Shown here: piece by piece, positions 28,703-64,000 of the stretch | How positions within the stretch are numbered: position 1 is the first letter of the stretch | Layout: the number at the start of each line of letters is the position of its first letter | IMG/VR virus record: IMGVR_UViG_3300044996_000613 | Reading direction: 5' to 3' (one strand) | Origin: an uncultured virus (IMG/VR IMGVR_UViG_3300044996_000613) | Lineage: Duplodnaviria > Heunggongvirae > Uroviricota > Caudoviricetes | Length of the DNA stretch: 64,000 bases | Translations under genes and position numbers: made by a program | Notes under the pieces: model-generated | Database searches by the model: none | Told to the model about the DNA's origin: nothing | Seen by the model: the letters and a program-made list of their open reading frames with translations, nothing else

Positions 28703-28709
28703 GGAGCAC

Positions 28710-44113: not shown

Positions 44114-44301
44114 GTGGCGTAGGCAAACTCAATGAAGAATGGGTAGTCTACACGAACAATTGCGCAACCAATTAGGTTGGCAAATCCAGAGCTTTCTCCA
44201 CTCTTCTTGAATCCAGCCGACGCCGACCTCACTGGTGGCACCTTCTCCCACCCATGGGTGTAAGTGCGGTGGGTGTGGCCTTGCTTGACTGTGTTATTCA
44301 T
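44110..44301 (-). CDS. small hypothetical protein
   Basis: GAGGG RBS, directly downstream of the peptidase. Confidence 0.4.
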   Translation of the reverse strand: MNNTVKQGHTHRTYTHGWEKVPPVRSASAGFKKSGESSGFANLIGCAIVRVDYPFFIEFAYAT

Positions 44302-44316
44302 TCGTCCCTCAGCTAA

Positions 44317-45676: not shown

Positions 45677-45821
45677 CGTATATCGCCTTCGTTCTCGCTG
45701 CCGTATGCGCCTCATCGACTCTGACCTCGACATCGCTGATGGCATCACCCATCCCCAGTTGAATCATCTCAGCCAGTGTGTGTCCCTTGTGCAGTTCTTC
45801 CAGTGCAACTATGTATGACAT
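45570..45821 (-). CDS. hypothetical protein
   Basis: Coupled to the upstream gene. Its 3' end overlaps the next gene. Confidence 0.4.
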   Translation of the reverse strand: MSYIVALEELHKGHTLAEMIQLGMGDAISDVEVRVDEAHTAARTKAIYDERGQGEPDTHRAGRQAREHFRAVTDCAHRLPGSW

Positions 45822-46135
45822 GGGGGCTCGCCTCCATCACGGCAGAATGCCAGGAACGCACGCTGGCCATCACCAGTAGCAAACTGCCGGTCGAAGTCCT
45901 CTAGCTCCTGGTCGGTGATGGGCCCCGCACCAGTCTGCCTTTTCTTCCCTGCTGAGCCGGCACGGGTGGTTACGCTGGTGAGCCCGAAACACCCCGGGCA
46001 TGCGAAGACTGCCACGAAGTGGCTGGTGACACGATCCCAGCGGACATCAACAAGCTGATCGCTCCCCAACATCTGCTGGCACCCAACGCAGCTTATGTGG
46101 TCTGGCAGATTCACATTGAAATTGACTCGCATCAT
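45809..46135 (-). CDS. small Zn-ribbon protein
   Basis: CVGC...CPGC, C-terminal 'PITDQELEDF'. AGGAG RBS. Confidence 0.6.
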   Translation of the reverse strand: MMRVNFNVNLPDHISCVGCQQMLGSDQLVDVRWDRVTSHFVAVFACPGCFGLTSVTTRAGSAGKKRQTGAGPITDQELEDFDRQFATGDGQRAFLAFCRDGGEPPCHT

Positions 46136-46156
46136 CGTCTCCTACAGGAAGTATAC

Positions 46157-49100: not shown

Positions 49101-52100
49101 TCCACGATGTCCTCGCTGATGCCCGCTGCTGACAGGTCGCTGTAGAGGTAGCGCACATGGTAGGCATCGCAAGTGATCGTCGCACCAAGCTCATTCAGTG
49201 TCACCGGCGTCCACGAGACGTAGACCTGTTGGGTGCGGAAGTGCGCGCGGTTCACCTGATCGGTGTCTTCTTCACAGTTGGCAAACTGGAACTCGACCTC
49301 CAGGTATCGGCCGGTGTCGCTGATCGACACCTCGGAGGCGAGATCGGCCAACGGCGACCACGGCTCCCCCGTCAGCCCGCCCTCGGTCTCTGCCGCCCTG
49401 TAACGAAACTGGATCGTCCCCCCACCACTACCGAGCTTGTAGATGAATCGGGCCTTATCCCAGGTGGCTCCAGAGAACCCGGCATCTAGGACATAGTTGG
49501 CCGTACCGGCAGTCTGGCCCGTATCTAGCGTCAGGTAGCCGTCGTCATTGGCTGACCAGCCGATGTCGAGTTGCCACTCCTCATCGGAGTAGACCTTGAT
49601 TGGGAGGCTCCCCCAGGTCTGTACCCCCTGCCGCACCATGTTGCTGACTTCGCTCATGTTGGGGGCATACACCACACGTACTGCTCCCGGCTGAGAGTCA
49701 ATGAATGTGATCTTCTTCCCAGTGATCTCATACTCGCTGCTGGGGACAACCAGCCCAGTTTGTAGATTTCGAACGTGATGGACCGTCGTCGGCGTGTAGG
49801 TTAGCTGCCCTTCCTTCGTCGCTGGGGTCTGGTACTCCACGTAAATCTTCTCTGCATCGTGGGCAGAGACATCGTACACGTAATCGACCTTCGGGAAGCT
49901 GTTACTTGTGATCGTGAACGAGATACTGACGTTCCCGTTTTGCGTCACGATGAAGCCCATGTTGCGCTTGGCCCCGGTCTTCCACGCCTCCAGGTAGGTA
50001 GCGATGTTGGCGCTATACTCGTAGGTGGAGCCCGAGACCAACGAACGGGTCATCGTGCAGATAGGAGTCGGGTCCACGTAGGATGTGGTGAGCGTCGCCT
50101 GGTCGCCGACTTCCTTGATGACCTCGTAGAGAGTCAGGTCTACGGGGTTGGGCGAGATGCCCGCTGGCATGGTGAGGCGCAACCGCAGAGTGGCGCTCGT
50201 GATCGTCCGCTGTCTTGCCCACATGTAGAACGCCCAGCCAAGACGGAAGAACAGTGGGGAGCCCCAACCGTCCTTGAACTGCGAGTCGAGCTTCTCGATC
50301 TCGGTCCCCTTAGGGATTCCAAGTTCGTTGTTATGGAACCCGATGGAGCCAGTTTTCCCGCCGTCGTTGGTGTAGGTTTTGGTCAGGCCGGTTGCAGCCC
50401 CTTCGGCCGCCAGCGGCCTCTGTCGGGAACCAAAACGAATGTAGCTGTAGCTATCTTCGTTGGATGGAACCCAGTAGCTCAATTCCTTCACGCAGCGGTA
50501 GACATCCCCGGCTCCATCAGGAACCAGCCAGACGCGAGCCGACCCGATGCCCATTGGAGGGTGAAGGACGTAGAAGTCCTGTGTCCCGGTCCCTGCGCCA
50601 GTATCATCTCCAGTGCCGATATACTCACCCCACCACTGTCCGTTGTCGGAATCGAAGTATATATCGTCGGCGAACACATTGCCGTCCGTGCCGAACGACA
50701 TCTCTTCATATGGCTTGTAGGTGTAGTAATTGGGATACGATCCGCCCGCGAAGTAGTCAGCGTAGTAGTAGCCATAGTAGTCATATGGTGTGGCTTCCCG
50801 GAGGTCCCAGTCGGCCATCCATACCTTGAGTAGATCAAGTGATGCTACATCTGGGAAGAACCCAAGCGGCAGGTTGTAGGTGTCCCAATCGAAAGCCAAC
50901 GGCACCATATCCGGGCGCACGATGCTGATGACCCCATCCGCCGAATCGGTCTTCACTTGGAGGTTGGAAATCGACTCGTTGTTGCTCCACTCATCAGCGG
51001 TCCCAATGACCTCTCCGCCCTTGACTGTGAACGAAGGAGCCAGCGGGCGATCTTCCAGCGCGATGCCGGACGGAATCGCAGATACGGCGCTGCTCTTGTC
51101 GCCCTCCACACTCAATCGCACAGCCGATACGCAGTACCAGTACGTGTAGCCGTTGGTGAGCCCGGTGTCGGTGTAGGTGGTCCCACTGATGAGACTGGCA
51201 TTGACACGGGTCCATGGCCCGGCCGAACCACCGCCGCTTTGTACACAGCTTCGGTAGACGATGTACTGGCAACCAGAGATCAGGCCACCAGCGACATCCC
51301 TGGTCACTGCGACCCAGTTGAGCACAACCTGCTGGTTGCCAGGTGTGGCGGTAAGCCCGGTAGGGGCGGATGGTGCCGGCGACGCGCTAGGGGCCGCATT
51401 CTGCGGCTGGTTGTACGAGTTGGTGGCGGGGTCGGTGAGCGACGAAACGTCGCTCTCCCTGCCATCTGCCGTATAGCAGGCTACCTTGTACCAGTACGTG
51501 GTACCATTGGTTAGCCCTGTATCGTTGTAGCTCGTTCCCGAGATCGTAGCGATCAACGAGTAGGCTGAATTGTCGAGGCTGCGGTACAGCCGGTAGCCCA
51601 CGACGCTTGTGTCCCCCGACGCAGCCCACGAGATGGTCAGCCGCTGGTTACCAATCGTGATCGGGTACATGTACGGCGGGGCTGGCGGGTAGACATCAGC
51701 CAGGTTGAACGAGTGGACCGCCACATTTGAGCCGTACACATGCCCCGCGAGCGCATCAAGGCCCTGCGCAGCAGGGGGGGCCTGTGACAGATGGCGGAGG
51801 TCGATGGGCGCCCCAAACGTGTCGCCGTCGTCATCGAACTCAACAACGAAGATGACGGGCTTGTCGGGCCATCCGGCAGTCCGATTGTACCAACCGAAAT
51901 CCACCTCGTTGTACTGGTTCTTCTCAGCGCAGCAGTAGTAGTAGCCATCCCCTTCGCCGGCTGGTGACCCCACATCCACCCACTCTCTGACCGCCATGTC
52001 GGTGCGCTCGGTGCGGTACATTCCGGGGCCGACTTCGATCTCGGTGGCGCTCTTCTTATTGATGGCCAGACCGAAGTAGATGGCTTCTCTGTGCTGTTGC

Positions 52101-55100
52101 CCCAGGCCGCGCTCAGCCTCAGTGATCTGTTCTCGGTGGAGCGCCCCCTCCGTACCAGTGAAGATCAATGGATGGAGGTTGACCAGGTAGGAGCACCACC
52201 CATCATCGGCGTCCTTGATCGGCCGGTCGCCACGAAGCACGATGCGCGCCATCTCCAGGCTACGGGTCTGGAGTGCAGGTGGGTATCCATCGGCCCCCTC
52301 TACCCCTTCGTAGACCGCAAACGATGTCCCGGCGCTGATTTGGCAGCTATCCGTGCGCTTGCCCCAGTGGCGGTAGGTCACATCGTACTCCACACCATCC
52401 ACCGGATCGAAACCGGAAGGCGTCCAGTCCACCCGGTCGAGACCCACCTCATAGTCGTGCTCGATGTCGATGTCGTATGCCGCCCCTCCGCTGTGGGCGG
52501 CCTCGGGGACACCGATCAACGCAAAGTTGTCGAACTTGACCGTGCCGGTCTTGTTGTCGAACACAATCAAGACCTCACCGTGACTGATGTAGTCAGTCGG
52601 CATGTAGTCGTAGGTGACCTCTTGCCAGGTACCCGATCCTACAGGCAAGGTGATCGTGTGGTCAAGCTCCAGCACATTGTCGTCGGTCCACAGCCGGAGA
52701 CGGACGGAAAGCTCGGCGTCCTCGCCGCCAACTGTGATGTTGCGCCAGTAGTCAAACGAGAGCCGCAGCGGACGCTTGGAGAATGCCTCTCCGCTGTCCT
52801 GGTCGATGCTGAACCGCTGCCGCACGTGGTGCAGTTGGCTGCCCGAGTTGCTGATTGCCAGGCACTTGGAACGCGGGTCGTTGGCGAAGCCGGCATCCAT
52901 GAGTGTGCGCTCGGCTGTGTCGATCTCGTAGAGCCAGTCCCAGTCCTTCCACCAGCGGTTGGCGTTGGCGGTTGTGTCTCCCTCACTGGCGTCCCAGGTG
53001 ATCGCACCGAGTACGACCTCCCAGCCATAGGGGGCACCAGTACCGTACTCAAAGTGCCCGTTGAAGATATGGTTGGGCACCATCCAGCGACCATCTTCTT
53101 GTACCCAGACCGTCACGAAGTCTGTGCGCATCAGGGCGCCGTTGATCCCATTGGCTGTGTATGTGCAGTGGGCCCGGACGTAAATGTACCCATCGGCCTG
53201 CACGTAGTCATTGAGGTCGGATGTCAACTCGCCCTCAAGAGCCATCTCAACGTCGGTGCCAAGGTTGTCGTCGTCGTAGTTGGCTAGCTCTTCCCAGCTA
53301 CTTCCGTTCCAGATCGACAGAGCCGCCCCATACTCTGTGGTAGCACCCACCGGACGCTCGCCGCACCCCTCCCAGCGCACCTTGATCTTCGATATTGTTC
53401 CGTTGTTCTCGATGTGCCGGAATCCGAAGATGTGCATGATGTACTCGCCGCTGGTGACGGCCGATTCGCTCTCGGAAGTGACGCCATCAGAGAAGAACAT
53501 GTTCTGATAGGTCTCGTCCTCGTCATTCAGCACGGGCTCACCGTTGCTCTCGAACCCGGCGTCGGTGAATTCCTGGGCTGCACCGGGGAGCGACTCTGGA
53601 TCGACAGCCAGTGTGCTGTAGGACAGGTGCCAGCCGATGTTGGTGTGGGCGTCGCTTCGCGGGCGACGTAGCGTGTGGTCACACCAGGCATCAGCCTCAA
53701 TGCGGCGGATGCTCTGAAGTGGGAATTGCAACCCCTCGATGGGGCTGTAGTGGGACCACACGTTGAAGCTGTTGGGTTCATCGGCCACCAGATCGAGCGC
53801 CACGAACGGATGGTAGGTGTCGCCATCGGCTGGGTGCTGTCGGATGGCGACGGGCTTGAGGACAGCCTTGTGGCGCGACGGTTCCCCGATGTTGTCTAGG
53901 ACTACCCGCTGCCCGTCGATGTAGGCGATCCCAGTGCTACCCACATCGAGATAGACGCTACGGCTAGGGGTTGTGTCGTCGTCGGCGTCGATGATTGTGT
54001 CATCGACGATCAGGCCGTCGCCACCTAGCTCATTGAAGTAGGTCAGGAGGATTTGAGGGATGAGGCCGGGCGCATCGTCGTTGCCTGTCCCCTGCCAGGA
54101 CCTGGCATCAGTGATCGACGACGCGGGGACGCGCTCTTCACCAACCAGTTCGTTGGTCATGTAGATGTAGGCTAATAGGATCATGTCGCTAGGCAGCGAT
54201 GGTGCCTCTGCGACTTCAGTGATCTCTACAGTCGTCCCCTGGAGGGCGTAGGTGACACCATCCTCATCCATGTAGAAGATGTCGAGACGGTGAAAGCCCT
54301 CAGCGCACGACCCGAAGCTGTAGGCGTGGAAGCCTCCAGCGTACTCACGGCGCCTGCCCTGGGCGTAGTATACACCAGAGGTAATGTAGACCTGTGATGA
54401 GCCGGCGTCGGTGGGATATGCCTGCACCTGGCACCCAGACGCCACTACGTTTCCGTGAAGCTCGTAGGTTCGCATACGGATGTTCTCTACGAGTGAATCG
54501 GCGTCTTCACGAGCGTCGATGCCTTCGTCTCCGGTCCAGATAACCTGGCGGCGCACATAGAGCACATTGTCCGACAGGGTGGCGGACTCTTCGTCAACGA
54601 TGGCGCCGTCGCGCCGGATAAGGACCCACCCAACACGCACGTGCTCTTCGTCCATGGCGGGGACCTGAGGAGACGCGGATGGTGTCCCGGTCTTCACATC
54701 CACCACCCCATCAAGGCCCAACTGCATGAGGGCGTAGCGGGGCAGCGCTTGGTAGTACTGGGCCCAGAAGTTCGTACCCGGCGTCGGATAGGCGAACTTG
54801 TCTGCCTTGAAGTGGACCTTACTGTCGTCAGTCAACTCGTAGTTGTCGGTCGGGACCGGCTCGGCCTGGTCAATGTCGCCAGCGTTGAACACACCCGACG
54901 TGACCCAGATGTACGCATAGTCCGACTCGACATCCACTGACGCCCCGCCAGATGCCACGTTGGCGGATGCTGCAGCCAGGTAGATGTCGCCACCGGCCCC
55001 CACGTAGTCCAGGACATTGCTACTGATCTGTCCGCTGATCTGGGTGATCGACGTTGTGGCCGTCCCCAGGCTCTCCCACTCGTCGGTGTCCCAGTTGAAG

Positions 55101-56683
55101 ATGAACAACTCGGCCCCGCCGTCGCCGGTGCCATCCCAGCGGTAGTTGATCTTATTGATGTTGCTGCGCGTGTAGCCGTGCTCTGCCTTGAACACATGCA
55201 GCGAATGCTCTCCATCTTCTGCCGAACTGCTGTTGATAACAGTTACGGCATCTGCTGAGCCCAGCTTGGCCCGCTCGGTCACCGTCAACGCTGTGCAGTT
55301 GGCGTCGTAGTTGGCCTCGGAGGGCTTGCTGGTCGGCTTGCTGGTTGTAAACGTGTCGCTGAGACGCTTCGTCAACAGGTCGGGGTTGGCCTCGATGTAC
55401 TTGTACAGCACCTCGCCCCCGACCAGCAGCAGCTTCATGACTGGCAGGTAGGTCATCGTATAGTCGGATGTGCTAGACGAGTAGATCATGTACTCCTGGA
55501 GGGTCTGGTTCTCGTCCGGGTCGTCTGTGGGCGCCACGAAAGCGCACGCCTGTGCCTGCGCTGCCGCTACGCGCATGAGCCAGTCCACACCACCGGAGAG
55601 GTGCTTCTCGATGTAGGCTGTTCCCGCTGACACCGTGAGGCCCATGGACACCCCAGGTGTGGGCTCGAAGCCGGTGACGATGCCTTCGCCGTCAAGGTCG
55701 GCCCCCCGGAGGTAGATTTCCTCCATGGCTGCATCGGCTTTGGCAACCGCGTTGTTCATGTCCTCCAGCATCTGGTAGAATGCCTGCTGGAAGTCCAGGA
55801 GGTCTTCGGCCGGCGTAAGGATGCGGCGCTCGTCGTCGATGAGGGCGTAGTTCCCAGTGGCTATCTCCTCGTCCGTGAGACCAGATAACCCTCGGTCTTC
55901 GTCCTCCTCCATATTGCGGTATGGCTTGGCCTTGGGGCCTGGGTAGTACAACTTGGCCAGCAGGATGCGTCCCGTGGCCGTATCGGACGGGGGTAGCGCC
56001 AGGTAGCCTTGGTAGGCTACCTGCATGTAGGGGTCGTCGTCACCGCCAGGAACGTAGTCACCATTGGGGTCCACATCGTCTTCGGAAACTGACGTGCCAG
56101 CAGCGATAAACAACTCGCCGTAGATGTCCAACTCTACGAAGAACAGTCCTGGAACCCTGAAGCGGTACTTGCAGCGAAGCTCTTCCTCGGCCCCAAAGTC
56201 GTCGAAGAGGGTGACCTTGCCGTTGGGGGCGTCGAGGGTATACTCGGAGTAGCGCGAGAGGGCGACACGAGCGCCAGTGCTCGCATTGTACTTGTAGGCG
56301 ATGAACGAGCCGTCATCAACCACATCTTCGTACTGAAGTTCATACTGCCCAGCAGAGGGAGCCGACGACACGATCTCGTCTTCCACCTGAACGTATGGGG
56401 TGGGGACGTTCTTGAATGCCCCGTCGTAGGAGACGCGGTAGCCGGAGATGTAGGCGGTGCCTTCCTCTACCTGAACAACACCACTGGTGCCCTCCCCGAA
56501 ACCGGAGGCGCCCTGGGCTTCGAGGACCTTGATGGACGAACCTGCGTCGTTGCCCAGCACCCCGTCCCCATGCAGTTCGTTGACTGCGAGACGGAGGCTA
56601 GCGGCAGTCGTCATCAGTCTGTTCTCGACATCCCCTTCCCCTACCGTCTTCTCCCAAACCGACCCTACGTGCTCGAAACGCAT
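46157..56683 (-). CDS. giant (3508 aa) modular virion structural protein, probably tail/baseplate/adhesin, with FN3 and putative carbohydrate-binding domains
   Basis: FN3 repeats ('PTGLTATPGNQQVVLNW...YTDTGLTNGYTYWYCVSAV'), repeated 'V.V..G.AYI.G' structural modules, two DNRLRE-like segments, acidic composition. Confidence 0.8.
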   Translation of the reverse strand: MRFEHVGSVWEKTVGEGDVENRLMTTAASLRLAVNELHGDGVLGNDAGSSIKVLEAQGASGFGEGTSGVVQVEEGTAYISGYRVSYDGAFKNVPTPYVQVEDEIVSSAPSAGQYELQYEDVVDDGSFIAYKYNASTGARVALSRYSEYTLDAPNGKVTLFDDFGAEEELRCKYRFRVPGLFFVELDIYGELFIAAGTSVSEDDVDPNGDYVPGGDDDPYMQVAYQGYLALPPSDTATGRILLAKLYYPGPKAKPYRNMEEDEDRGLSGLTDEEIATGNYALIDDERRILTPAEDLLDFQQAFYQMLEDMNNAVAKADAAMEEIYLRGADLDGEGIVTGFEPTPGVSMGLTVSAGTAYIEKHLSGGVDWLMRVAAAQAQACAFVAPTDDPDENQTLQEYMIYSSSTSDYTMTYLPVMKLLLVGGEVLYKYIEANPDLLTKRLSDTFTTSKPTSKPSEANYDANCTALTVTERAKLGSADAVTVINSSSAEDGEHSLHVFKAEHGYTRSNINKINYRWDGTGDGGAELFIFNWDTDEWESLGTATTSITQISGQISSNVLDYVGAGGDIYLAAASANVASGGASVDVESDYAYIWVTSGVFNAGDIDQAEPVPTDNYELTDDSKVHFKADKFAYPTPGTNFWAQYYQALPRYALMQLGLDGVVDVKTGTPSASPQVPAMDEEHVRVGWVLIRRDGAIVDEESATLSDNVLYVRRQVIWTGDEGIDAREDADSLVENIRMRTYELHGNVVASGCQVQAYPTDAGSSQVYITSGVYYAQGRRREYAGGFHAYSFGSCAEGFHRLDIFYMDEDGVTYALQGTTVEITEVAEAPSLPSDMILLAYIYMTNELVGEERVPASSITDARSWQGTGNDDAPGLIPQILLTYFNELGGDGLIVDDTIIDADDDTTPSRSVYLDVGSTGIAYIDGQRVVLDNIGEPSRHKAVLKPVAIRQHPADGDTYHPFVALDLVADEPNSFNVWSHYSPIEGLQFPLQSIRRIEADAWCDHTLRRPRSDAHTNIGWHLSYSTLAVDPESLPGAAQEFTDAGFESNGEPVLNDEDETYQNMFFSDGVTSESESAVTSGEYIMHIFGFRHIENNGTISKIKVRWEGCGERPVGATTEYGAALSIWNGSSWEELANYDDDNLGTDVEMALEGELTSDLNDYVQADGYIYVRAHCTYTANGINGALMRTDFVTVWVQEDGRWMVPNHIFNGHFEYGTGAPYGWEVVLGAITWDASEGDTTANANRWWKDWDWLYEIDTAERTLMDAGFANDPRSKCLAISNSGSQLHHVRQRFSIDQDSGEAFSKRPLRLSFDYWRNITVGGEDAELSVRLRLWTDDNVLELDHTITLPVGSGTWQEVTYDYMPTDYISHGEVLIVFDNKTGTVKFDNFALIGVPEAAHSGGAAYDIDIEHDYEVGLDRVDWTPSGFDPVDGVEYDVTYRHWGKRTDSCQISAGTSFAVYEGVEGADGYPPALQTRSLEMARIVLRGDRPIKDADDGWCSYLVNLHPLIFTGTEGALHREQITEAERGLGQQHREAIYFGLAINKKSATEIEVGPGMYRTERTDMAVREWVDVGSPAGEGDGYYYCCAEKNQYNEVDFGWYNRTAGWPDKPVIFVVEFDDDGDTFGAPIDLRHLSQAPPAAQGLDALAGHVYGSNVAVHSFNLADVYPPAPPYMYPITIGNQRLTISWAASGDTSVVGYRLYRSLDNSAYSLIATISGTSYNDTGLTNGTTYWYKVACYTADGRESDVSSLTDPATNSYNQPQNAAPSASPAPSAPTGLTATPGNQQVVLNWVAVTRDVAGGLISGCQYIVYRSCVQSGGGSAGPWTRVNASLISGTTYTDTGLTNGYTYWYCVSAVRLSVEGDKSSAVSAIPSGIALEDRPLAPSFTVKGGEVIGTADEWSNNESISNLQVKTDSADGVISIVRPDMVPLAFDWDTYNLPLGFFPDVASLDLLKVWMADWDLREATPYDYYGYYYADYFAGGSYPNYYTYKPYEEMSFGTDGNVFADDIYFDSDNGQWWGEYIGTGDDTGAGTGTQDFYVLHPPMGIGSARVWLVPDGAGDVYRCVKELSYWVPSNEDSYSYIRFGSRQRPLAAEGAATGLTKTYTNDGGKTGSIGFHNNELGIPKGTEIEKLDSQFKDGWGSPLFFRLGWAFYMWARQRTITSATLRLRLTMPAGISPNPVDLTLYEVIKEVGDQATLTTSYVDPTPICTMTRSLVSGSTYEYSANIATYLEAWKTGAKRNMGFIVTQNGNVSISFTITSNSFPKVDYVYDVSAHDAEKIYVEYQTPATKEGQLTYTPTTVHHVRNLQTGLVVPSSEYEITGKKITFIDSQPGAVRVVYAPNMSEVSNMVRQGVQTWGSLPIKVYSDEEWQLDIGWSANDDGYLTLDTGQTAGTANYVLDAGFSGATWDKARFIYKLGSGGGTIQFRYRAAETEGGLTGEPWSPLADLASEVSISDTGRYLEVEFQFANCEEDTDQVNRAHFRTQQVYVSWTPVTLNELGATITCDAYHVRYLYSDLSAAGISEDIVDTSFTYNPRDHDNMWFSVQAQSPTTSHPCSRPNTWKTGTPAFATPGRPSLAATLKATGQRISWSAPTKRADDSIGFEPISYHVWRRYEVGKGITGHEWTRLTGTPITETYYDDNEFDGISTRNAYYAVVALDSDGRMSEIAPLSVSLPSTYICSIPEYSYVMDDIDGAPESDLWRTLSYFFCGFYEDSYYNPISSAYVEVSNSTQDRWGFFFFNYYIYSYWNTDTGALVTRDRPGNQVPPIMRSEVALGVQYCSGSSVTLELYAVLDDEFDPRSGGGYYIYWDDRPTNLELVDTQVISSSSDYVAFDVSDYVREAVLLRRPNFGFVVKVADTSYGHSVQLAVGYTEAWNSGYRQPYNSSTKMTVFDGLGAPAAPSGFVTEVAHRDDDDIDSSNQGLWIKSRWDDYDPADWVRGVKLYASNTPTSGFASAGVALLGTTVLTKKIDSPLIWYVYAVALGMDGSEGAGSTKKRCYFGTASATLSPIRAVNTALPGGYIGSDTPVLSRNADGDGEYTIFKVNMPSLPSGSEYTQLNSNEPFGLVTVPSPNLHPVTRVYVRKLNMEIDETDNWEDVEDYVDRKYESYFAVSAGYTLYFSIEPFLVDRSQGRTLYDSIIIQPEPGQFEFGCAGDSFPSSIQLLYGYVDTGFAGSGFGALRADQEAQSGGGFTASAVIDHDAYVVEVETYNVVPDGDELPAPPPGGAEGHAPTPRGLTGEESEAIIALDNVKAEITPRGTGYVPVLMVGFDVSSVFPTGLLDETEYVGRQFGAFQALRTNPWQETPTGGVLPTYGLRRLWLEFQGYAIDTAGEIVCAIMFAWDHVENRWRFINRGRPFIYDDEVAEGWIDLRSVDYELSRFVGSDSGVSKVWLAVVPMRRLPLDSFKLVTDYVGLRVEFDLRVYAGSAYISEESDDEWYILFANNRVVPAADTGSINAAQVVYREIPGVFAYLSGEESGSAHVMDVTTKWAKVKVAEGGTLHWAAFGH

Positions 56684-57408
56684 TAGCTATCCCCTCGCGG
56701 ACCCATCATGGCTGTGATGTAGTGCTGTTGCGCATACTTGTCCGCCAGCCTAAGCGATGCAAAGGTCCCGATGTCGAGTTCTGGCTCTTCGCTCTCAATG
56801 ATTGCGAACTTGCAGTCTGGTCGTATGGCGTTGAAGATCGCCTCGCCCCGAGGTTCATCCAAAGCAGACAGTCGGAAGGCTCCTGCTCCCATCCATACCC
56901 GAGCCTCGTGGTACCTCTTCTTTGGCTTCTCTATGGCGCGCCAGTTGCCGGCAGATGGGACAAGCACACCTTTATCGGTGTCGTGTTCGGTCCAGCGGCG
57001 AACCAGCAGGCACGCATGGAAGCTGTCGGGCAGGCGTCGCAGCCGTTCTACGAGCCTCCGAGGATGGGTGGGGACCATGGTATCTCCCATAAGCACGACG
57101 AACACATCCTGGAGGTCGCCAACTTCGGCCAGCGCGTTCAGCGTACAACCACCCGGTGCGTAGTCTGCCGAGTCCGCCACAGCCACATCGAAGTCCATGG
57201 CCGCCCCCAACGCCACTATCTGAGGGGCTAGCCACCAGGCAGTCACAACAGGCTCCAGTCCTCCATGCCGTAGGTACTCAACTTGCCACTGTAGCAGCGG
57301 CTTGCCGAGCACATGCAGCATCGGCTTGGGCCTGTGTTCAGTCAGCTTGCCTAGCCTTCTCCCCCGTCCTGCTGCTAGGATCACGGAGTCGTAAGGAGCC
57401 TTGAACAT
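56683..57408 (-). CDS. sugar-1-phosphate nucleotidyltransferase (HddC-like; start reassigned to ATG 57408)
   Basis: ILAAGRGRRL, PKPML, VLMGD, IEKP, LDIGT. Confidence 0.88.
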   Translation of the reverse strand: MFKAPYDSVILAAGRGRRLGKLTEHRPKPMLHVLGKPLLQWQVEYLRHGGLEPVVTAWWLAPQIVALGAAMDFDVAVADSADYAPGGCTLNALAEVGDLQDVFVVLMGDTMVPTHPRRLVERLRRLPDSFHACLLVRRWTEHDTDKGVLVPSAGNWRAIEKPKKRYHEARVWMGAGAFRLSALDEPRGEAIFNAIRPDCKFAIIESEEPELDIGTFASLRLADKYAQQHYITAMMGPRGDS

Positions 57409-57477
57409 TGCCTTATCCTTCCCTGTCCCACGAGGCAGAGCCCGCACTTGAAGTATTCCTCAGCTACCTACCCACCT

Positions 57478-58020
57478 TCAACTGCCCTGGCTAGCCGATA
57501 CCATGAACGGGCGAAGCACGTCGAACAGGGCCCTAGCAGGATCGGTTTCGGCATGGACCCAGGCGAAGTGGGCCCCGATGGCAGCCGCAAACGCGCTATC
57601 GCTGCCTTCCCGCCTGCCGAGGTTGTCGCCCACCACGAACTCGACCGTTGGCTTACGCCAGACAATCTCAGTGATGTCGCGGCACACCTCTGCCATTCTG
57701 GTGCCAGGCTTCCTGCAGACGCAACCGGAATCCTTGGCATGGGGGCAGTACACGCTGGCTAGGGGCTGTAGGCCGATCTGGCGCCACAATTCGTCGTCGA
57801 TCTGTTCCAGCGTTTGAGCAGAGAAGTGAGTGTGGGCTCCCGCCTGGTTGGATACCACGAACACAAATGGAGTGATCCCCATGGCCAACCGGAGGGCTTC
57901 TCCGGCCTTTGGGGTAGCCTTTACGTCTTCTGGGCTGTTGACGTAGGTCCCTAGCTCCATCTCGTTCAGGACGCCGTCCCGGTCGAAGTAGATAATAGCT
58001 GGGTCATGGTCCCATCCCAC
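57478..58020 (-). CDS. gmhB: D-glycero-D-manno-heptose 1,7-bisphosphate phosphatase (HAD IIIA; start uncertain)
   Basis: FDRDGVLN, VSNQAG, Zn motif CPH....CVCRKP, VGD...SD. Confidence 0.88.
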   Translation of the reverse strand: MGWDHDPAIIYFDRDGVLNEMELGTYVNSPEDVKATPKAGEALRLAMGITPFVFVVSNQAGAHTHFSAQTLEQIDDELWRQIGLQPLASVYCPHAKDSGCVCRKPGTRMAEVCRDITEIVWRKPTVEFVVGDNLGRREGSDSAFAAAIGAHFAWVHAETDPARALFDVLRPFMVSASQGS

Positions 58021-58985
58021 CTTGGTGATGTATTCACGCACACCAACGAGTGGGCGGTGCAGAAAGACGATAGGCGAGTGTAGTCTTCCTTGTTGCGTAG
58101 ACATACGAAGATGAACCCCTTTCCCCCGCCGCCGCAGAGCTTGGCGGGCATACCTTCAGCATTGAGATGGTCCACCATCTGTACGGTCGGCGATGGCGAC
58201 GAACATGTGTCATGGTTGGCCTTCTTGATGCCCCAGGCTTCCTGCAACGCCTCTGCCATGAAGTCGAACTCCCCCTGGCTCACCTTCTGGAATGTCTCGA
58301 TGGCCAAGGCGACCCCCCGCCTAGTGGCGTCAGCGCGGTCCTCGATCTGCCTTAGATTGGATTTGTAGCACTTGAACTCTCCGTCACCCGAGGTGGTTTC
58401 CGGCACATAGACCAGAAAGCAGTGCTTATTCATGTAGCCCGTGAGGCCGCGCCTTAGACGCACGGGGATGGGGTAGACATCAACATCTTCTCCTTCGAAC
58501 ATCAAGAGGTTGACGCCGCCGTAGGCCGAGGCGTAGATTTCCTGAAGCCCCATACAGCGCCCGAGGCCTTCGATCTCGATACGCTCCCCCCAGTGTGCGA
58601 CAAGCTCAGGGTGGGGATCGGTGTGCCCCGACAGATGCAACAACAAGCTCACCATGCCGGTTGTGAACGCACTGCTGGCCCCCATTCCGGTTTGATGCCC
58701 TGGCAACTCGCCATGAGAACTGATCTCCAGCGGCGGGCAGTCGGGGTATAGTAGTTCCACCGACTTCTTCACTATCTCGTGCTGGATGCCACCAATGGTA
58801 GGGGACACATCGACTTGGCGGTACCGCACGTGCCAGTTATTGGTTAGCGACACGTGTGCTAGGGCGCGGATGCACTGTTGGGTTGAGAACGAGAACACCG
58901 CTCCCTGCTCGTGTTGGAACCACTCGCGGAAGTCACTTCCTCCGCCGGAAATCGAGACCCTGTATGGGGCAGACAGCAGACGCAT
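57966..58985 (-). CDS. hddA: GHMP sugar kinase, HddA-like (heptose-7-phosphate kinase)
   Basis: APYRVSISGGGSD, HEIVK, TGMGASSA, YASAYGG, AWGIKK, KLCGGGGKGF. Adjacent to gmhB. Confidence 0.8.
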   Translation of the reverse strand: MRLLSAPYRVSISGGGSDFREWFQHEQGAVFSFSTQQCIRALAHVSLTNNWHVRYRQVDVSPTIGGIQHEIVKKSVELLYPDCPPLEISSHGELPGHQTGMGASSAFTTGMVSLLLHLSGHTDPHPELVAHWGERIEIEGLGRCMGLQEIYASAYGGVNLLMFEGEDVDVYPIPVRLRRGLTGYMNKHCFLVYVPETTSGDGEFKCYKSNLRQIEDRADATRRGVALAIETFQKVSQGEFDFMAEALQEAWGIKKANHDTCSSPSPTVQMVDHLNAEGMPAKLCGGGGKGFIFVCLRNKEDYTRLSSFCTAHSLVCVNTSPRWDGTMTQLLSTSTGTAS

Positions 58986-59962
58986 TAGCCGGTCTCCAGA
59001 TAGGACTCGACGGCTGCTTCCACAGCATCGAGGATGTCGCGGCTCTCCAGTGGTTTGACACTGAAGAAGCCTGAAGTCCCCTTAGTATCCAGGAGCGTGT
59101 GCATTACCTCACCCAAGACCAAGTTCGGGGTAGTGCGGACTTGGGGGGCTCCACGGCCGCGCTTGTGGAGGCTGTCGGCGACGAACAGAGCGATCTGTCG
59201 ATTTGAGAAGTAGCCTCTCCCATCGCTACCGATGTTGAAGATCAGGTGCCCTCCTCCGTCCCTTCTCGACTTCGACAACTTGGTGGCGGCCTCCAAGATG
59301 TGGTCTACCACATAGTCCACTGGGACATAATCGCGATACACCTCCCCGCCGCCTCTGAGGGCAATCTCCCCTGCACGGCGCCCCGTGGCCTGATTGACCA
59401 GCAACGGGATCAGCCCCCTGCATCCGGCACCAACCACGTTCCCGAAGCGGAGCGAAATGGCGTGGGCGCCCGTGTCGTCGGCCCACAGGTCCAGCACCTT
59501 CTCGCACATGTCCTTGGTGCAGCCGTATAGCCCACGAGGGGCGTTGTTTGGCGGGATACAGCAATTCTGGCAGTCACCATATACAGCCCCGCTCGAAGCA
59601 AAAACCACGAATCGAGGCTGGATGTGCGTCAGGATGTTGATGGTGGCCTGGACATTTGATGCCACCATCTCAGTGGCCTGAGAGGTGTGGACTTCCACAA
59701 CGGCTGATGCTGCCAGATGGATGACCGGGAGCCCGCGATAGCGCTCGGCGAGGTGGGCTACTTCCCCTTCATCCCGGAGATCAATCTGGAGAGGGGTATA
59801 CGGAACCCCTGGCGTGGTGGGTTCCACCCTATCGAGACCGATCACCTGGTGTCTGCCCCAACCAGCTTCCTGCAGGCGCCTCGCTGTGTGCCTGCCAATG
59901 AAGCCACTAGTTCCTGTCACGATCATACTTGAACCAGACTCCGACTGATCCGTCAGGGCCAT
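58985..59962 (-). CDS. NAD-dependent nucleotide-sugar epimerase/dehydratase (extended SDR)
   Basis: IVTGTSGFIG, HLAA, ASSGAVYG, YGCTK, LRFGNVVG, RDYVPV, FNIGS. Confidence 0.9.
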   Translation of the reverse strand: MALTDQSESGSSMIVTGTSGFIGRHTARRLQEAGWGRHQVIGLDRVEPTTPGVPYTPLQIDLRDEGEVAHLAERYRGLPVIHLAASAVVEVHTSQATEMVASNVQATINILTHIQPRFVVFASSGAVYGDCQNCCIPPNNAPRGLYGCTKDMCEKVLDLWADDTGAHAISLRFGNVVGAGCRGLIPLLVNQATGRRAGEIALRGGGEVYRDYVPVDYVVDHILEAATKLSKSRRDGGGHLIFNIGSDGRGYFSNRQIALFVADSLHKRGRGAPQVRTTPNLVLGEVMHTLLDTKGTSGFFSVKPLESRDILDAVEAAVESYLETG

Positions 59963-60983
59963 CGAAGCTGACCCCCTTCTGTGTGGTCGGGGCCCCACGG
60001 AGGAGCCTCCAGGCCGTCATGATGTCGCGCGGGATGGAGAGCGTGTAGTGCTGCGGCAACGGGTTCTCATACTGGATCACGACGGGCGCCGGCTCTCCGA
60101 AGAAGCTCACTCGCCCTGCGGGGATGTTCCTGGGGATGGAAACAGCGGCCCCACGAACGTCAATGAGAGCCTGGCGCCCTTCCCAGATGTTGGCCGCCCT
60201 AGCCTTTGCGGCCTTGTGGTTCCTTGCCCACTCCTCAGCCTTGTGCATATCCGCTTTGGTCTTCTGCAGATCGTGCTGCCTAGCGATGTATGAGAAGAAA
60301 GGGATGTGGATGAAGCGGATGTCGTAGGCCGCCGCCAAGAGCCAGAAGTCGTAGTCTTCGGCTGATGACAAATCGCGCTGCCCGCCAAGCGCGTGGTACA
60401 TCCACGTGGGCATCATAGTGCTCTGGCAGAGCACACAACAGCCTGGCTGTAGCCTCTCATATGTTGCGGGGCCCTGGCTATCGAATGGGTGCATGCGGCC
60501 CAGTGGGTCCTGGACCCAACCGTTAGCGTGGACGATGGCGGATGCTGCCCCCCACGAGAGCGCACTGGCCGTTATCCCGATGCGACCGGGGAGCACCTTG
60601 TCGTCTGGGTCTAGCCAGCACACGTAGTCGCCATCGACCTTGGAGACGCCAAAGTTGCGCGCTAGCCCCAGAGGGAGGCCGGCATCCAGTCTGTAGATGG
60701 AGACCGCCCTAAATGACGACCTCGATTCGAACTCGTCCACCATGCGGCATAGTGACTCGTACTCCTCTGGGGATGATCCATTATCAATGAAGACAATCTC
60801 CGTTGCTGTCTTCTCTTCGTCATAAAGTGACGACAGGCTACTGAGAGCATCACCTAGATATGAAGAGTAGTTGTAGTAAGGCATGATGAGGCTGACCGTG
60901 GGGGAGTCCGGGGCCCACCGCAACAGAGAAGGGGCTCCAGCAGTAGCAGATGCACCACCGAAGAACATTACCTCAGTTCTCAC
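59907..60983 (-). CDS. GT2 glycosyltransferase
   Basis: VSLIMPYYN, FIDNGS, ARNFG, WLDPDD, AEDYDFW. Confidence 0.9.
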   Translation of the reverse strand: MRTEVMFFGGASATAGAPSLLRWAPDSPTVSLIMPYYNYSSYLGDALSSLSSLYDEEKTATEIVFIDNGSSPEEYESLCRMVDEFESRSSFRAVSIYRLDAGLPLGLARNFGVSKVDGDYVCWLDPDDKVLPGRIGITASALSWGAASAIVHANGWVQDPLGRMHPFDSQGPATYERLQPGCCVLCQSTMMPTWMYHALGGQRDLSSAEDYDFWLLAAAYDIRFIHIPFFSYIARQHDLQKTKADMHKAEEWARNHKAAKARAANIWEGRQALIDVRGAAVSIPRNIPAGRVSFFGEPAPVVIQYENPLPQHYTLSIPRDIMTAWRLLRGAPTTQKGVSFDGPDGSVGVWFKYDRDRN

Positions 60984-60984
60984 C

Positions 60985-62187
60985 CTACCTGCTCCTGACT
61001 CCGAAGATGCGGCCCCACACCTCGGTTCCCCGTAGATGCCACGGCTGTAACGTGCGTGGCTGCGCCCCGCACAACCCTACAGCGATCTCTGCCATTTCAT
61101 CTGTGTCCCCTTCCACAGCGCTCTTGCAGGTTGTGGAGGGGATCGCCCACAATGCGCTGTGGGCAGATGGCGGGATGACGGGAATGATGCCAGCCATGAG
61201 CGCCCCGAGCGCCAGGTCAGCTACCTCTTGGCTTGTGTCGGTCCCCACAAATACCCTGGCAGCCGGCAGGCTGATCGTCCCCACCTCGACCCTCCGAGCC
61301 TCAAGCCCTGCAGCCTGGATGCGGTTCGCCACACCACCGGACCCGGCGCCGCACACCACCACATCGCACGAGGAGCGGTCTCTGATGGAAGGCGTCGGGA
61401 CGGCGAACGCCGCCTCGGTCGTACTTGTGGTCAGCGCCATGGCGGCTGCTTCGATGCTACCGGATGTACATAGGCACAGAGGAGGCACAGACTGGATATG
61501 GCCCACGTCGTCTGCTAGCCATCGCCAGTGTGCTGCGTCCCCAGCGTCTGATTGGACGGGCATGGACAGGCGGTCGGCGACCCCCTGGGAAGCTCGGACG
61601 GCAAACCCCTGCGCCGACAGCCGCCTCATGTACAGGATGTTGCGCTCGGGGACACCGGCGATGGCGCTCATCTTGGATACGCGGATGGGGGGCAGCCCAG
61701 ATAGCTCAATGCTCCTACGCAACATGCTGCCTAGCTCTTCCCCAACAACAGCCCTGATGATGTTGGCTATTCTGTCGGCCAGTACCAGGCTACTGTCCAT
61801 GTTGCCATCTCGCCACCTGCTGTTGGGTCGCGGGTCGTCATCGAAGCTCTTGAGTTCGTCGGCCCACGGGCGACGCATAGGCTGGGCAACGAACATCTGG
61901 CGGCTCTTCCCAACCTGGATGATGCCTTCATCGTTGGTGATTGCGATGTGCGGGATACCGGCAACCTGAGCGTCTACTACCTTCAGGTCAAACCAACTCA
62001 ACATCTTCTCAATACAGGCACGCCGCGCCGGGTCAGTGTCGTAGAAGGACAGAGGGGCAATTGCCCGCGCCGGGAGGCTAGCAGACAGGGCAGCAGCCCG
62101 TTTCGCTAGAGTGCGATATGGGTCGTTGCCGAAGTCTGATTCGATGTGAAGAACGATGTCGCCTGTGATTTCCCTGGTATCTCCCAA
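60985..62187 (-). CDS. hypothetical protein in the sugar-modification cluster (possibly degenerate GT-B)
   Basis: AGGAGG RBS. C-terminal 'LALGALMAGIIPV' resembles the GT4 'EAMAAG.PV' tail. Confidence 0.55.
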   Translation of the reverse strand: MGDTREITGDIVLHIESDFGNDPYRTLAKRAAALSASLPARAIAPLSFYDTDPARRACIEKMLSWFDLKVVDAQVAGIPHIAITNDEGIIQVGKSRQMFVAQPMRRPWADELKSFDDDPRPNSRWRDGNMDSSLVLADRIANIIRAVVGEELGSMLRRSIELSGLPPIRVSKMSAIAGVPERNILYMRRLSAQGFAVRASQGVADRLSMPVQSDAGDAAHWRWLADDVGHIQSVPPLCLCTSGSIEAAAMALTTSTTEAAFAVPTPSIRDRSSCDVVVCGAGSGGVANRIQAAGLEARRVEVGTISLPAARVFVGTDTSQEVADLALGALMAGIIPVIPPSAHSALWAIPSTTCKSAVEGDTDEMAEIAVGLCGAQPRTLQPWHLRGTEVWGRIFGVRSR

Positions 62188-62211
62188 AATGCCCCTCCTA
62201 GCCGTAGAACG

Positions 62212-63999
62212 CTACCGCCATCCTTCACAAATCCAGTGAACCTTCACCTGCCAGTAGAGTGGGAAGCGGTAGAAGACGCTGAACTGGTTGGTGCTCTTAC
62301 CCCCCTCGTATATCTCGACAGTCTCCTCGTTCACCTCGATCTTGTTGCCCTCTAGACCTTCTACGGCAATCGTGACCCAACCGAAGTAGGCCGGCCAGTT
62401 GTATCCATAGTATAGGTACTCGTAGCCGTACCACCACTGATCGACGTAGTAGTCGGCGTCGTAGGCATAGTCGTAGTTGTCCCAGTAGCCGTAGTAGCCA
62501 TAGTAGGCTAGGTCGTATGGGTCTTCGTACTGGATTGCGTAGTACTGACCCCAGTCTTCATAAGGCCCGACGTATACGGCCTCGATGGCTAGCGTGATCC
62601 TGGACGGGGTGCAGGCCACTGGGACATTCACGACGGCCGAACTGTAGTCGGTGTCCACTGCCGATGCGTGGAAGCCAGTGCTGTCGGCCTGGGCGCTCCC
62701 ACTGCTGGGTGCGTATATGAATAGGTCTCCCTCGATGGTCACACTTCGTGCCCCTTCTGGGACGTAGGCCGGCTCGCCCCAGAATATTCCCCAGTTGTAG
62801 AGCACGGGAGTAGCCGATGCGTCTTCGGTCGCCAGTACGGCACGAACCTGCATCAGGGTGTCACCGCTCTCCCCGCTGACGCGGTTCAACTGGCCGGCGA
62901 TCATGGGGGCCCAAGTCGGGATGTCGTCCAGCGGATTGAGGCTGTATTGGAACGTGATCGACGTGTTGTCCGGCAGGTACATGTCAGCAAATAACACAAG
63001 CTGATCCCAGTAGGCCAGAGGTGAACTGGAGAGGATCGGGCCATACAGGATCAGTACGGTCCCACTGTCTCCAGTTAGCCAGTATGTCCCGAGCGATGGG
63101 TTGTCGGTGATCGACGGATAGGCTTTGCCGGTTGCCTCCACAACAGCACTGGGGCCGTTCCCACCGTAGCCGCTATTGAGCGTCGTGAGCAGTGGTGACT
63201 TCCCGGTTTCCGCGTACACAGAGGGGACCACCGACAGGTCGGTGTAGGATTCACTCTGTGTCACCACATGGAGGTCAAAGGCGTCGATGTTGCCTGTGAC
63301 GCCCGGTCCGGCGGCCACCCGCAAGACATAGGTCTTGTAGAGGCCGTTATTGTACTTCCCTGTGAGACCCTGGGCGACCGCCACTGTCTTCTGATATTCG
63401 TCAACATCAGATTGGTTGAGGCTGGAGATCAGCAGACCAGTATGCGCACTAGAGAACGATCCCAGTGTCCCCTGGTCGTCGTACTCAGCAATGGCAAACG
63501 CGACGGTGCCGAAGCTCGCGCTATCACGATAGACCATTGTGATCTTGGCTACTGGCCCCTGTAGGTAGAGGTAGTAGTAGCCGTTGGTGCCTTGGACGTA
63601 GATGTCGCCGCTGGCCTGAGCATCCCCGGTCTCCGTGTCGAACGAAACGGCCGTAGCGTAGTAGTCGTCAGCCGGATCGCCGTCAAGCAGGTCTTCAGCC
63701 TCATAGCGCACCACGCTGGTGGCCATGATGTCGATGTTCACCGTGTCGTGCTCAGTAATACCACCAGTGAGGTAGGCAGCCCCAGGCGCCGGATTGTCTT
63801 CCCATGTGGCTGAGGCCTTTGTGACGCTCGTGGCTACGTTGAGAATAGCAGACGACTCGTTGATGTGTGTCTCCAGGTCATCGTTGGGAGGGCTGAAACC
63901 ACCAGGGACATCGTTGGAGGCGATGGTCAGGTTATCGAACTCTTCGCTTGTTATGAGGACTGCTGTTGGGTTGCCATCGACATCGACCTCATACTGTTT
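62212..63999 (-). CDS. large structural protein, 5'-partial (runs off the right edge), with a Tyr-rich segment
   Basis: The frame stays open from 63741 to the edge (KQYEVDVDGNPTAV...). Beta-rich acidic composition and 'QVRAVL...ATPVL' resemble phage tail/baseplate proteins. Confidence 0.65.
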   Translation of the reverse strand, partial: KQYEVDVDGNPTAVLITSEEFDNLTIASNDVPGGFSPPNDDLETHINESSAILNVATSVTKASATWEDNPAPGAAYLTGGITEHDTVNIDIMATSVVRYEAEDLLDGDPADDYYATAVSFDTETGDAQASGDIYVQGTNGYYYLYLQGPVAKITMVYRDSASFGTVAFAIAEYDDQGTLGSFSSAHTGLLISSLNQSDVDEYQKTVAVAQGLTGKYNNGLYKTYVLRVAAGPGVTGNIDAFDLHVVTQSESYTDLSVVPSVYAETGKSPLLTTLNSGYGGNGPSAVVEATGKAYPSITDNPSLGTYWLTGDSGTVLILYGPILSSSPLAYWDQLVLFADMYLPDNTSITFQYSLNPLDDIPTWAPMIAGQLNRVSGESGDTLMQVRAVLATEDASATPVLYNWGIFWGEPAYVPEGARSVTIEGDLFIYAPSSGSAQADSTGFHASAVDTDYSSAVVNVPVACTPSRITLAIEAVYVGPYEDWGQYYAIQYEDPYDLAYYGYYGYWDNYDYAYDADYYVDQWWYGYEYLYYGYNWPAYFGWVTIAVEGLEGNKIEVNEETVEIYEGGKSTNQFSVFYRFPLYWQVKVHWICEGWR

Positions 64000-64000
64000 G

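Follow-up and report, generated by a model that had tools for sequence, protein, structure and literature searches.

The enzymes GmhA, HddA/WcbL, GmhB, and HddC make up the GDP-D-glycero-alpha-D-manno-heptose pathway of S-layer glycans and capsules, in which GmhA, an isomerase of the SIS type, provides heptose 7-phosphate from sedoheptulose 7-phosphate. Phage sugar pathways accompanied by glycosyltransferases (GTs) recur in large aquatic phages, and no heptose-type cassette among them has an experimentally shown target. In Caulobacter phage Cr30 (gp006 to gp010), an HddA-like kinase stands with a GT and an epimerase, and in Synechococcus phage Bellamy (genes 212 to 222), the kinase is accompanied by a nucleotidyltransferase (NTase), two epimerases, and a GT; heptose genes are also listed, in a part of PMC7378029, for the cyanophage SynMITS9220M01. 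In mycobacteriophages, phage GTs glycosylate the capsid and the tail tube (Freeman 2023, as described in a section of PMC12363180). Here, we analyzed a 64,000-nucleotide (nt) stretch of the uncultured virus IMGVR_UViG_3300044996_000613 (the window) and describe in it a cassette of sugar-nucleotide and GT genes that lies between the genes of two giant, probably fibre-like proteins and that probably, to judge from the enzyme families it encodes, makes a nucleoside diphosphate (NDP)-sugar for soluble transferases. The kinase protein of the cassette is also on record on a 91,223-base-pair (bp) contig, so the contig is at least 91 kb long. A compact, coupled operon of this sort is a convenient set for deciding between virion, host-surface, and DNA glycosylation, and the identity of the acceptor bears on the shielding of particles, the masking of receptors, or the protection of DNA by phages.

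Organization and reproducibility of the cassette

In order of transcription, the locus comprises the 3' end of the gene of a 1682-residue protein, a gene without recognized relatives in the family databases (the orphan), a family 2 GT (GT2), an extended short-chain dehydrogenase/reductase (SDR), a GHMP kinase, a HAD-IIIA phosphatase, an NTase, and the gene of a 3508-residue giant protein (Table 1). This order and the gene families, as laid out in the initial annotation, were borne out by open reading frame (ORF), Pfam, and NCBIfam scans, with all the genes on the minus strand. The 1-bp overlap that it had reported before the giant gene was likewise found, read as TAATG at 56683, where the stop of the NTase gene meets the start of the giant gene. 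A second TAATG stop/start overlap joins the SDR and kinase genes, and the remaining junctions of the cassette are overlaps or gaps of 1 to 24 nt. The orphan starts with TTG, with AGGAGG 6 nt upstream, and GGAAGGA precedes the internal ATG of the NTase gene at 57408. Neither terminator-like sites (12 found versus 9.6 +/- 3.8 expected) nor promoter-like sites exceeded the chance level. The cassette is probably translationally coupled to the giant fibre-like gene, and we infer that the locus is a late-module sugar-nucleotide operon.

Seven lake-water metagenome runs contain the stretch, with no RNA run among them. The initial annotation had allowed that the locus might be chimeric or cellular. 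In four of the runs other than the source, contigs cover positions 44001 to 64000 at at least 99% and bridge the giant/NTase, GT2/orphan, and orphan/upstream junctions; because these junctions are bridged in four non-source runs, the locus is not an assembly chimera. That it belongs to a phage rather than to a cell is supported by genes of replication and nucleotide metabolism (DnaE, DnaB, UvsX-like, NrdD/G, deoxynucleoside monophosphate [dNMP] kinase, and exonucleases), all of them on one strand.

Loose contig ends recur at 44812, 57205, 59229, and 61928 in several of the four runs. They suggest co-occurring variant genomes that diverge inside the genes of an S8 peptidase (44812), the NTase, the SDR, and the orphan, and recombination or variation may be concentrated in the cassette.

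Enzymes encoded by the cassette

All the enzyme matches are at the family level, with scores far below the NCBIfam equivalog cut-offs. The GT2 matches PF00535 (62.8 bits against a cut-off of 23.3; E = 4.8e-17) and its translation holds an Asp-rich DPDD motif; its NCBIfam matches are polysaccharide enzymes, every one below cut-off. It is predicted to be a soluble glycosyltransferase of the GT-A fold. The SDR matches PF01370 (124 bits; E = 7.9e-36), and its translation contains the GxxGxxG and YxxxK motifs. Its best NCBIfam matches are GalE (9e-23) and then ADP-heptose 6-epimerase (2e-14), both below cut-off. In the 4,6-dehydratases of the extended SDR family, an acidic pair follows the Ser/Thr; here, nonacidic residues follow the Ser, and by this rule the enzyme would belong with the epimerases or reductases and not with the 4,6-dehydratases.

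The kinase matches PF00288 (28.3 bits against 22.3) and phrog_34407 (E = 1.9e-23). Its best NCBIfam match is HddA (NF049969; 38 bits against a cut-off of 600), and all four of its PDB sequence matches are heptose kinases (3k85, 4n3o, 4usm, and 4usk), so that it is predicted to be an HddA/WcbL-like GHMP kinase acting at the anomeric position of a sugar phosphate. The phosphatase exceeds the cut-off of TIGR01662 (HAD-IIIA; 53.7 bits against 44.6) and falls short of the two GmhB models, PRK08942 (60.8 bits against 178; E = 1.2e-16) and another (31 against 150). Its PDB matches are 4pnh, titled D,D-heptose 1,7-bisphosphate phosphatase, and 3l8h, titled putative HAD-like hydrolase, both of which, 3l8h included, we take to be of the GmhB type; the alignment to 3l8h and 4pnh spans the DRDGV motif and the C-P-H...C-x-C-R-K-P loop. 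The NTase matches PF12804 (46.3 bits) as well as PF00483. Its best NCBIfam match is MurU (65 bits against 250), archaeal GlmU, AglF, and RmlA also score above HddC (28 bits against 300), and its PDB matches are led by MurU (4y7t) and include 5xhw/6jq8, proteins of the 6-deoxy-mannoheptose pathway. The identity to heptose enzymes is about 22 to 30%. No transmembrane (TM)-like segment was found in any cassette enzyme or Pfam-supported GT of the window. The names HddA-like, GmhB, and HddC-like given in the initial annotation thus hold as family resemblances, and none of them reaches its equivalog cut-off (38 versus 600, 60.8 versus 178, and 28 versus 300 bits, respectively).

The kinase family was also characterized by its genomic context. 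Using tblastn with the window enzymes and the GmhA of Cr30, we searched within 5 kb of the kinase gene at 80 metagenome loci among the matches listed, with an identity to the window kinase of at most 36% in the best segment. Among these matches, a GmhA homologue was found at 38 of the 80 loci, an NTase homologue at 28, and a GmhB homologue at 18. At the loci flanked by 3 kb or more on each side, again among the matches listed, the fractions were 15/22 for GmhA, 15/22 for the NTase, and 10/22 for GmhB; at least one of the three partners was present at 19 of these 22 loci and all three at 5. Because homologues of GmhA, the NTase, and GmhB lie near its relatives, the kinase family is assigned by context to the heptose pathway.

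The orphan gene

The base composition of the orphan (GC1/GC2/GC3 = 0.62/0.52/0.71) is similar to that of other genes in the window. A word-based search returned the orphan alone, and HMMER, run exhaustively against 1.84 billion representatives, added three homologues of 416 to 426 residues with an identity of about 30%. Because of these three homologues, the orphan is regarded, on sequence conservation, as a real gene of a four-member family. Pfam gave no match for any of the four members, a search of the PDB with the family profile gave nothing below E = 0.4, and the ESM Atlas held no usable match.

The fold predicted from the single sequence was poor (predicted local distance difference test [pLDDT], 41). 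The AlphaFold2 model built with the four-sequence alignment reached a pLDDT of 64 and a predicted template modelling score of 0.62, and showed two alpha/beta halves. With this model, Foldseek found no match at E of at most 0.001 in PDB or BFVD; the weak top rows were enriched in glycosyltransferases. The VIA-align comparison with 48,161 chains gave top Z scores of 8 to 10.2, the best Z score of the tool's background being 7 to 8, and among its best 50 rows about 45 are GT-B glycosyltransferases by title, mostly of family GT4 (LpcC, PimA, BshA, PglA, MshA, and WaaG), aligned to residues ~178 to 399 of the orphan. The signature of GT4 is the EX7E Glu pair; at the positions expected for it, the alignment of the orphan family shows no conserved Glu. 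One borderline hydrophobic stretch is present (residues 321 to 340). Weak Foldseek rows for SIS isomerases, including GmhA 3bjz (probability 0.84; TM score, 0.17/0.32), were set aside as generic Rossmann-like similarity. On the strength of the model, the orphan probably has a GT-B fold of the GT4-like sort, in a very divergent form, and is a candidate for a second transferase.

The flanking giant proteins and their apparent synteny with the cassette

The ORF upstream of the orphan is the last 595 residues of a 1682-residue protein (P0018) that has three homologues of 1657 to 1680 residues. The protein has no Pfam or PHROG match of its own; one homologue (P0021) lies above the Pfam cut-offs for F5/8 type C and CBM_4_9, the other two lie below cut-off, and the family profile weakly matches a CBM32 chain (E = 0.002). 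It is probably, as its family suggests, a large fibre-like, carbohydrate-binding virion protein. The 3508-residue protein matches DUF4815 at 49 bits, above the cut-off of 30; its fn3 and CBM96 matches stay under theirs. PHROGs matched by the Fn3 region carry the annotations tail, tail fibre J, and Hoc-like, and there are Fn3 matches in PDB as well. According to a part of PMC8341000, the annotations given to PHROG_358/DUF4815 proteins are those of virion, baseplate, neck, or tail proteins. The 3508-residue protein is probably a virion fibre or surface protein. To call the two flanking genes structural, as was done at the outset, is a reasonable reading of the DUF4815, Fn3, and carbohydrate-binding module (CBM) matches, the role of both being predicted rather than demonstrated. 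BLASTP found no significant similarity between the upstream ORF and the giant protein, and comparing profiles of the two giants with hhalign brought out no more than a weak motif common to their N termini (E = 0.0022; probability, 13%).

Both giants contain unusual Tyr-rich stretches, Tyr accounting for 9.2% of the upstream protein and 6.0% of the giant protein. Just downstream of the giant gene lies the gene of an S8 subtilase (44317 to 45252; phrog_3677, "protease", 6.9e-78), which could be a maturation protease for the giant protein.

A synteny survey in related phages had been proposed in the initial annotation, and homologues of the fibre, the orphan, and the kinase indeed appear to share contigs. 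The longest contig reported is 10,673 bp for a member of the fibre family (P0019), a member of the orphan family (P0006), and a kinase (P0002; 49% identity) alike, 215,187 bp for both P0020 and P0012, and 7,357 bp for both P0010 and P0015. Because the homologues report equal longest contigs, the fibre-orphan-kinase arrangement appears to be conserved in related phages, one of them jumbo-sized (215 kb); the synteny rests on the equal sizes of these reported contigs, the relatives being at 47 to 55% identity.

Proposed pathway, its substrate, and the acceptor of the sugar

The order of reactions that the families suggest would begin with phosphorylation by the GHMP kinase at C1 of a sugar carrying a distal phosphate, most likely D-glycero-D-manno-heptose 7-phosphate supplied by the GmhA of the host or by a phage GmhA encoded outside the window. 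The GmhB-like phosphatase would then remove the distal phosphate, the NTase would form the NDP-sugar, and the SDR would epimerize it. The soluble GT2 and the GT-B-like orphan, probably together with other GT domains encoded in the window, would transfer the sugar in the cytoplasm, the most likely acceptor being the phage particle, above all the giant fibre-like proteins on either side of the cassette, whose genes would be cotranscribed with it. The data show how the genes are ordered and to which families they belong, that catalytic motifs are present, that the genes are tightly coupled, that the orphan is conserved, and that the locus recurs in other runs; the substrate, the nucleotide, and the acceptor in this scheme are those that we infer from the families and their setting.

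That the sugar is a heptose we consider moderately probable, a mannose-type hexose phosphate being the main alternative. The initial claim that the phage makes its own activated heptose is sustained as far as the kinase, phosphatase, and NTase follow the logic of HddA, GmhB, and HddC and the PDB matches of the kinase are all heptose kinases; it falls short at the first step, as no GmhA or other SIS protein was found in the 64-kb window by Pfam (ORFs of at least 150 residues at E of at most 0.001; the 23 ORFs of unknown function at E of at most 1), and tblastn of the window with the GmhA proteins of Cr30 and Bellamy gave nothing at E of at most 1e-4. Because the window holds no GmhA, we speak of a heptose-type sugar rather than of a proven heptose. 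The enzyme may be supplied by the host or by the unseen part of the genome, and a Gram-negative host would have heptose 7-phosphate available. In the alternative case, the kinase and phosphatase would serve as a mutase bypass on a hexose 6-phosphate, for example mannose 6-phosphate, giving NDP-mannose or an epimer of it for mannosyltransferase-like GTs; this concerns the substrate and not the target. Besides the missing GmhA and the low identity to heptose enzymes, it could draw on the Anp1-like GT of the window, which is of a mannosyltransferase family, and on the structural matches of the orphan, which include the GDP-mannose users PimA, PimB', LpcC, and methylmannose polysaccharide mannosyltransferase. 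The best family and PDB matches of the kinase and phosphatase are nevertheless heptose enzymes, and the relatives of the kinase, among the matches listed, usually adjoin GmhA, so that a mannose-type substrate is the less likely of the two.

As to the acceptor, a soluble cytoplasmic one is favoured because there are no TM-like segments, because no Wzx-, Wzy-, WaaL-, or Gtr-like protein was found in the window, and because the cassette is coupled to the giant fibre-like gene. Within this, virion fibres or the particle are our tentative choice of target, a leading possibility rather than a probability, and what is not taken up by the virion, the host surface, or DNA is left to other targets. A glycan of the host surface seems rather unlikely to us. 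Here, the NDP-sugar and the GTs would act on lipid-linked intermediates during infection to alter an envelope glycan (the core or O-antigen of lipopolysaccharide, the capsule, or the S-layer glycan), and the receptor of the CBM-bearing fibres would be masked, which would prevent superinfection or keep progeny from being lost on debris. Heptose is typical of cell envelopes, receptor-binding genes beside glycan-modifying genes are also typical of seroconverting phages, CBMs occur in the family of the flanking protein, and the subthreshold NCBIfam matches of the GT2 are to polysaccharide enzymes. Moreover, in a part of PMC7029224, pelagimyophage host-recognition clusters hold tail fibres, GTs, and rfaE, and in a part of PMC7824862, jumbo-phage and cyanophage clusters of epimerases, sugar kinases, NTases, HAD phosphatases, and GTs are read as changing polysaccharides, in both cases as readings that carry no experimental test within those accounts. 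However, no membrane component was found in the window, neither an initiating transferase nor the Wzx/Wzy/WaaL- and Gtr-like proteins, its Pfam-supported GTs are free of TM-like segments, and about eight GT domains with a dedicated sugar pathway go far beyond the needs of known seroconversion modules. Hypermodification of phage DNA, with the NDP-sugar placed on a hydroxylated pyrimidine for evasion of restriction, is less probable still, in spite of close precedents: a HAD/kinase fusion, a cytidylyltransferase, and a GT-B gave mono- and diheptosyl-5-hydroxymethylcytosine, and clusters for DNA hypermodification were also found near structural genes (both in a part of bioRxiv 10.1101/2023.12.21.572611), and phages DLP3 and RB69 make UDP-arabinose by means of an isomerase, a kinase, a GmhB-like phosphatase, and an NTase similar to MurU 4y7t (PMC13326640), which is the best PDB match of the window NTase as well. 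A T4 gp1-like dNMP kinase is encoded in the window (phrog_139; 5.7e-24), and five GT genes lie among the replication genes. Against DNA as the target, no thymidylate-synthase-like hydroxymethylase or hydroxylase, TET/JBP, or C5-methyltransferase was found among the window ORFs (Pfam at E of at most 0.001; the 23 ORFs of unknown function at E of at most 1), although the window covers most of a module of replication and nucleotide metabolism, an absence of little weight, as the window covers 64 kb and the contig extends to at least 91 kb. The kinase is of the GHMP type, as opposed to the APH/protein-kinase-like type of the DNA systems, and a BLAST search of 50,697 phage records linked neither the NTase nor the phosphatase to phages of the RB69 or DLP3 type. 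The published clusters just cited weigh against virion glycosylation, as do the enzyme scores far below the equivalog cut-offs, the closer match of the NTase to MurU-type enzymes than to HddC, the missing GmhA, the placement of the other GT genes among replication rather than late genes, and the derivation of the orphan fold from a middling model (pLDDT, 64) with Z scores only slightly above the background of 7 to 8; nor does anything in the data identify virion proteins as the acceptor, as had been proposed. It is doubtful that this lineage of large DnaE-type freshwater phages builds a heptose-containing glycan and attaches it to the 1682- and 3508-residue fibres via the divergent GT-B orphan family, hitherto unrecognized and maintained beside the fibre gene; if it did, virion glycosylation with sugar activation encoded by the phage itself would be on record for the first time beyond the giant viruses of eukaryotes.

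The phage background and other GT genes of the window

The long ORFs of the window are all on the minus strand, and its G+C content is about 60%. Pfam and PHROG scans identified genes for DnaE, DnaB, a UvsX/RecA-like protein, NrdD/NrdG, exonucleases, two N6/N4 DNA methyltransferases, a UvrD-like helicase, and the T4 gp1-like dNMP kinase, which makes the window, by gene content, a phage-like replicon; no tRNA gene was found within its 64 kb. The source is presumably an uncultured, DnaE-type large freshwater phage. Its DnaE shows about 31 to 35% identity at best among the 50,697 phage records. In the same collection, the DNA of the locus matched nothing, nor did three protein queries, namely the upstream ORF, the N-terminal 1500 residues of the giant protein, and the phosphatase. 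Queries of IMG/VR with DnaE, the kinase, the upstream ORF, and the alignments of the orphan and fibre families turned up no close relative, and two scans of genome contigs found no relative. The Moraphages, large freshwater phages with core GTs, were ruled out, as a part of PMC12619734 gives them a family B polymerase versus the DnaE of the window.

Seven or more GT genes had been counted in the initial annotation. The figure is right for GT domains, of which there are seven, to which the GT-B-like orphan and two weak candidates may be added; the genes with significant Pfam matches are only five (Table 1). The GT genes at 19195 to 32493 lie inside the replication module. There is a 4-bp overlap between the gene of the Anp1-like GT and the stop of an N6/N4 DNA methyltransferase gene, and the GT fusion protein is above the Pfam cut-off for "GT4 in conflict systems" (29.3 versus 26 bits).

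Table 1. Genes of the sugar-nucleotide cassette, its flanking genes, and the other GT genes and candidates of the window
Feature	Coordinates	Strand	Basis or remark
ORF open at 5' end, 3' part of the gene of the 1682-residue protein	62212-63999	minus	last 595 codons
400-residue orphan	60985-62187	minus	no Pfam, NCBIfam, or PHROG match
GT2 glycosyltransferase	59907-60983	minus	PF00535
Extended SDR, epimerase type	ORF 58985-59998, likely start ATG 59926	minus	PF01370
GHMP kinase, HddA/WcbL-like	57966-58985	minus	PF00288
HAD-IIIA phosphatase, GmhB-like	ORF 57478-58104, likely start GTG near 58020	minus	TIGR01662
Sugar-1-phosphate nucleotidyltransferase	ORF 56683-57447, likely start ATG 57408	minus	PF12804, PF00483
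3508-residue giant protein	46157-56683	minus	DUF4815
GT-A (Glyco_transf_7C/GT2_3)	31330-32493	minus	Pfam
Weak GT-B candidate	30294-31490	minus	E = 0.016
Anp1-like (GT62-type) GT	29465-30307	minus	Pfam
Weak GT candidate	24784-25515	minus	E = 0.039
1263-residue GT4-GT2-GT4 fusion	21174-24965	minus	Pfam, no TM-like segment
GT4	19195-21174	minus	Pfam, no TM-like segment

Between the S8 peptidase gene and the replication module lies an ORF-poor gap of 1.4 kb with a low G+C content (0.52), to which the six copies of the palindrome TGAACAG-N3-CTGTTCA (43199 to 43670), the core of a 23-nt unit, are confined. Six matches compare with 0.12 expected by chance, and the array looks like an operator or iteron array; Rfam matches in the same gap were discarded as hairpin noise below the gathering scores. 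Elsewhere in the window, a 961-residue UvrD-like helicase (316 to 3201) shows a weak match to an intein-splicing domain at residues 474 to 593, between the helicase halves, and a gene at 7304 to 8590 encodes a uracil-DNA-glycosylase-superfamily domain fused to an HD phosphohydrolase domain, the HD part matching phrog_5889 (function unknown).

Comparison with known systems

Like the GDP-heptose pathway of bacteria, the cassette unites in one operon a predicted anomeric kinase of the GHMP family, a HAD-IIIA phosphatase that has the Cys/His loop, and a sugar-1-phosphate NTase. It differs in the lack of GmhA from the window, in an NTase nearer to MurU, the N-terminal part of GlmU, and AglF than to HddC, and in its setting among phage fibre genes. 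HddA-like kinases are found in 10 of the 50,697 phage records, and distant kinases also sit within large sugar islands on two IMG/VR contigs. The sets of Cr30 and Bellamy each include a phosphoheptose isomerase of their own, unlike the window, and no GmhB is annotated in those stretches; their kinases share 23 to 27% identity with that of the window, and both phages are T4-like versus the DnaE-type phage described here.

The sugar clusters of jumbo phages and cyanophages (Iyer et al. 2021, in a part of PMC7824862) likewise combine an epimerase, a sugar kinase, an NTase, a HAD phosphatase, and GTs, but with PfkB kinases and HIGH-superfamily NTases in place of the GHMP and MobA/RmlA-like enzymes found here, and in the host-recognition cluster of pelagimyophages (in a part of PMC7029224), sugar genes are clustered with tail-fibre genes. 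The mycobacteriophages Che8, Corndog, and Myrna resemble the proposed scheme in that soluble phage GTs act on virion proteins in the cytoplasm; as the descriptions in parts of PMC12363180 and PMC12619734 have it, these GTs come without a sugar-activation pathway of their own. The systems of DNA glycan hypermodification (in parts of bioRxiv 2023.12.21.572611 and Lee et al. 2026, PMC13326640) follow the same chemical order, from the sugar phosphate through the bisphosphate and 1-phosphate to the NDP-sugar and the GTs, but use a different type of kinase and have no sequence match to the NTase or phosphatase of the window, in which no base-hydroxylating enzyme was found either.

To call the cassette an undescribed system, as the initial annotation did, was therefore an overstatement: heptose sets are annotated in Cr30 and Bellamy and mentioned for SynMITS9220M01, sugar clusters of jumbo phages are in print, and the kind of system is already known. 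The locus is a good but not exceptional candidate, in a phage that is uncultured. Particular to it are the full kinase-phosphatase-NTase-SDR-GT operon without GmhA in the window, the conserved orphan family with its probable GT-B-like fold, and the coupling of the operon to the genes of two giant fibre-like proteins, all this in a lineage without described relatives. New in this analysis are the orphan family with its divergent GT-B-like model, the apparent fibre-orphan-kinase synteny, and the bridging of the gene junctions in four non-source lake runs.

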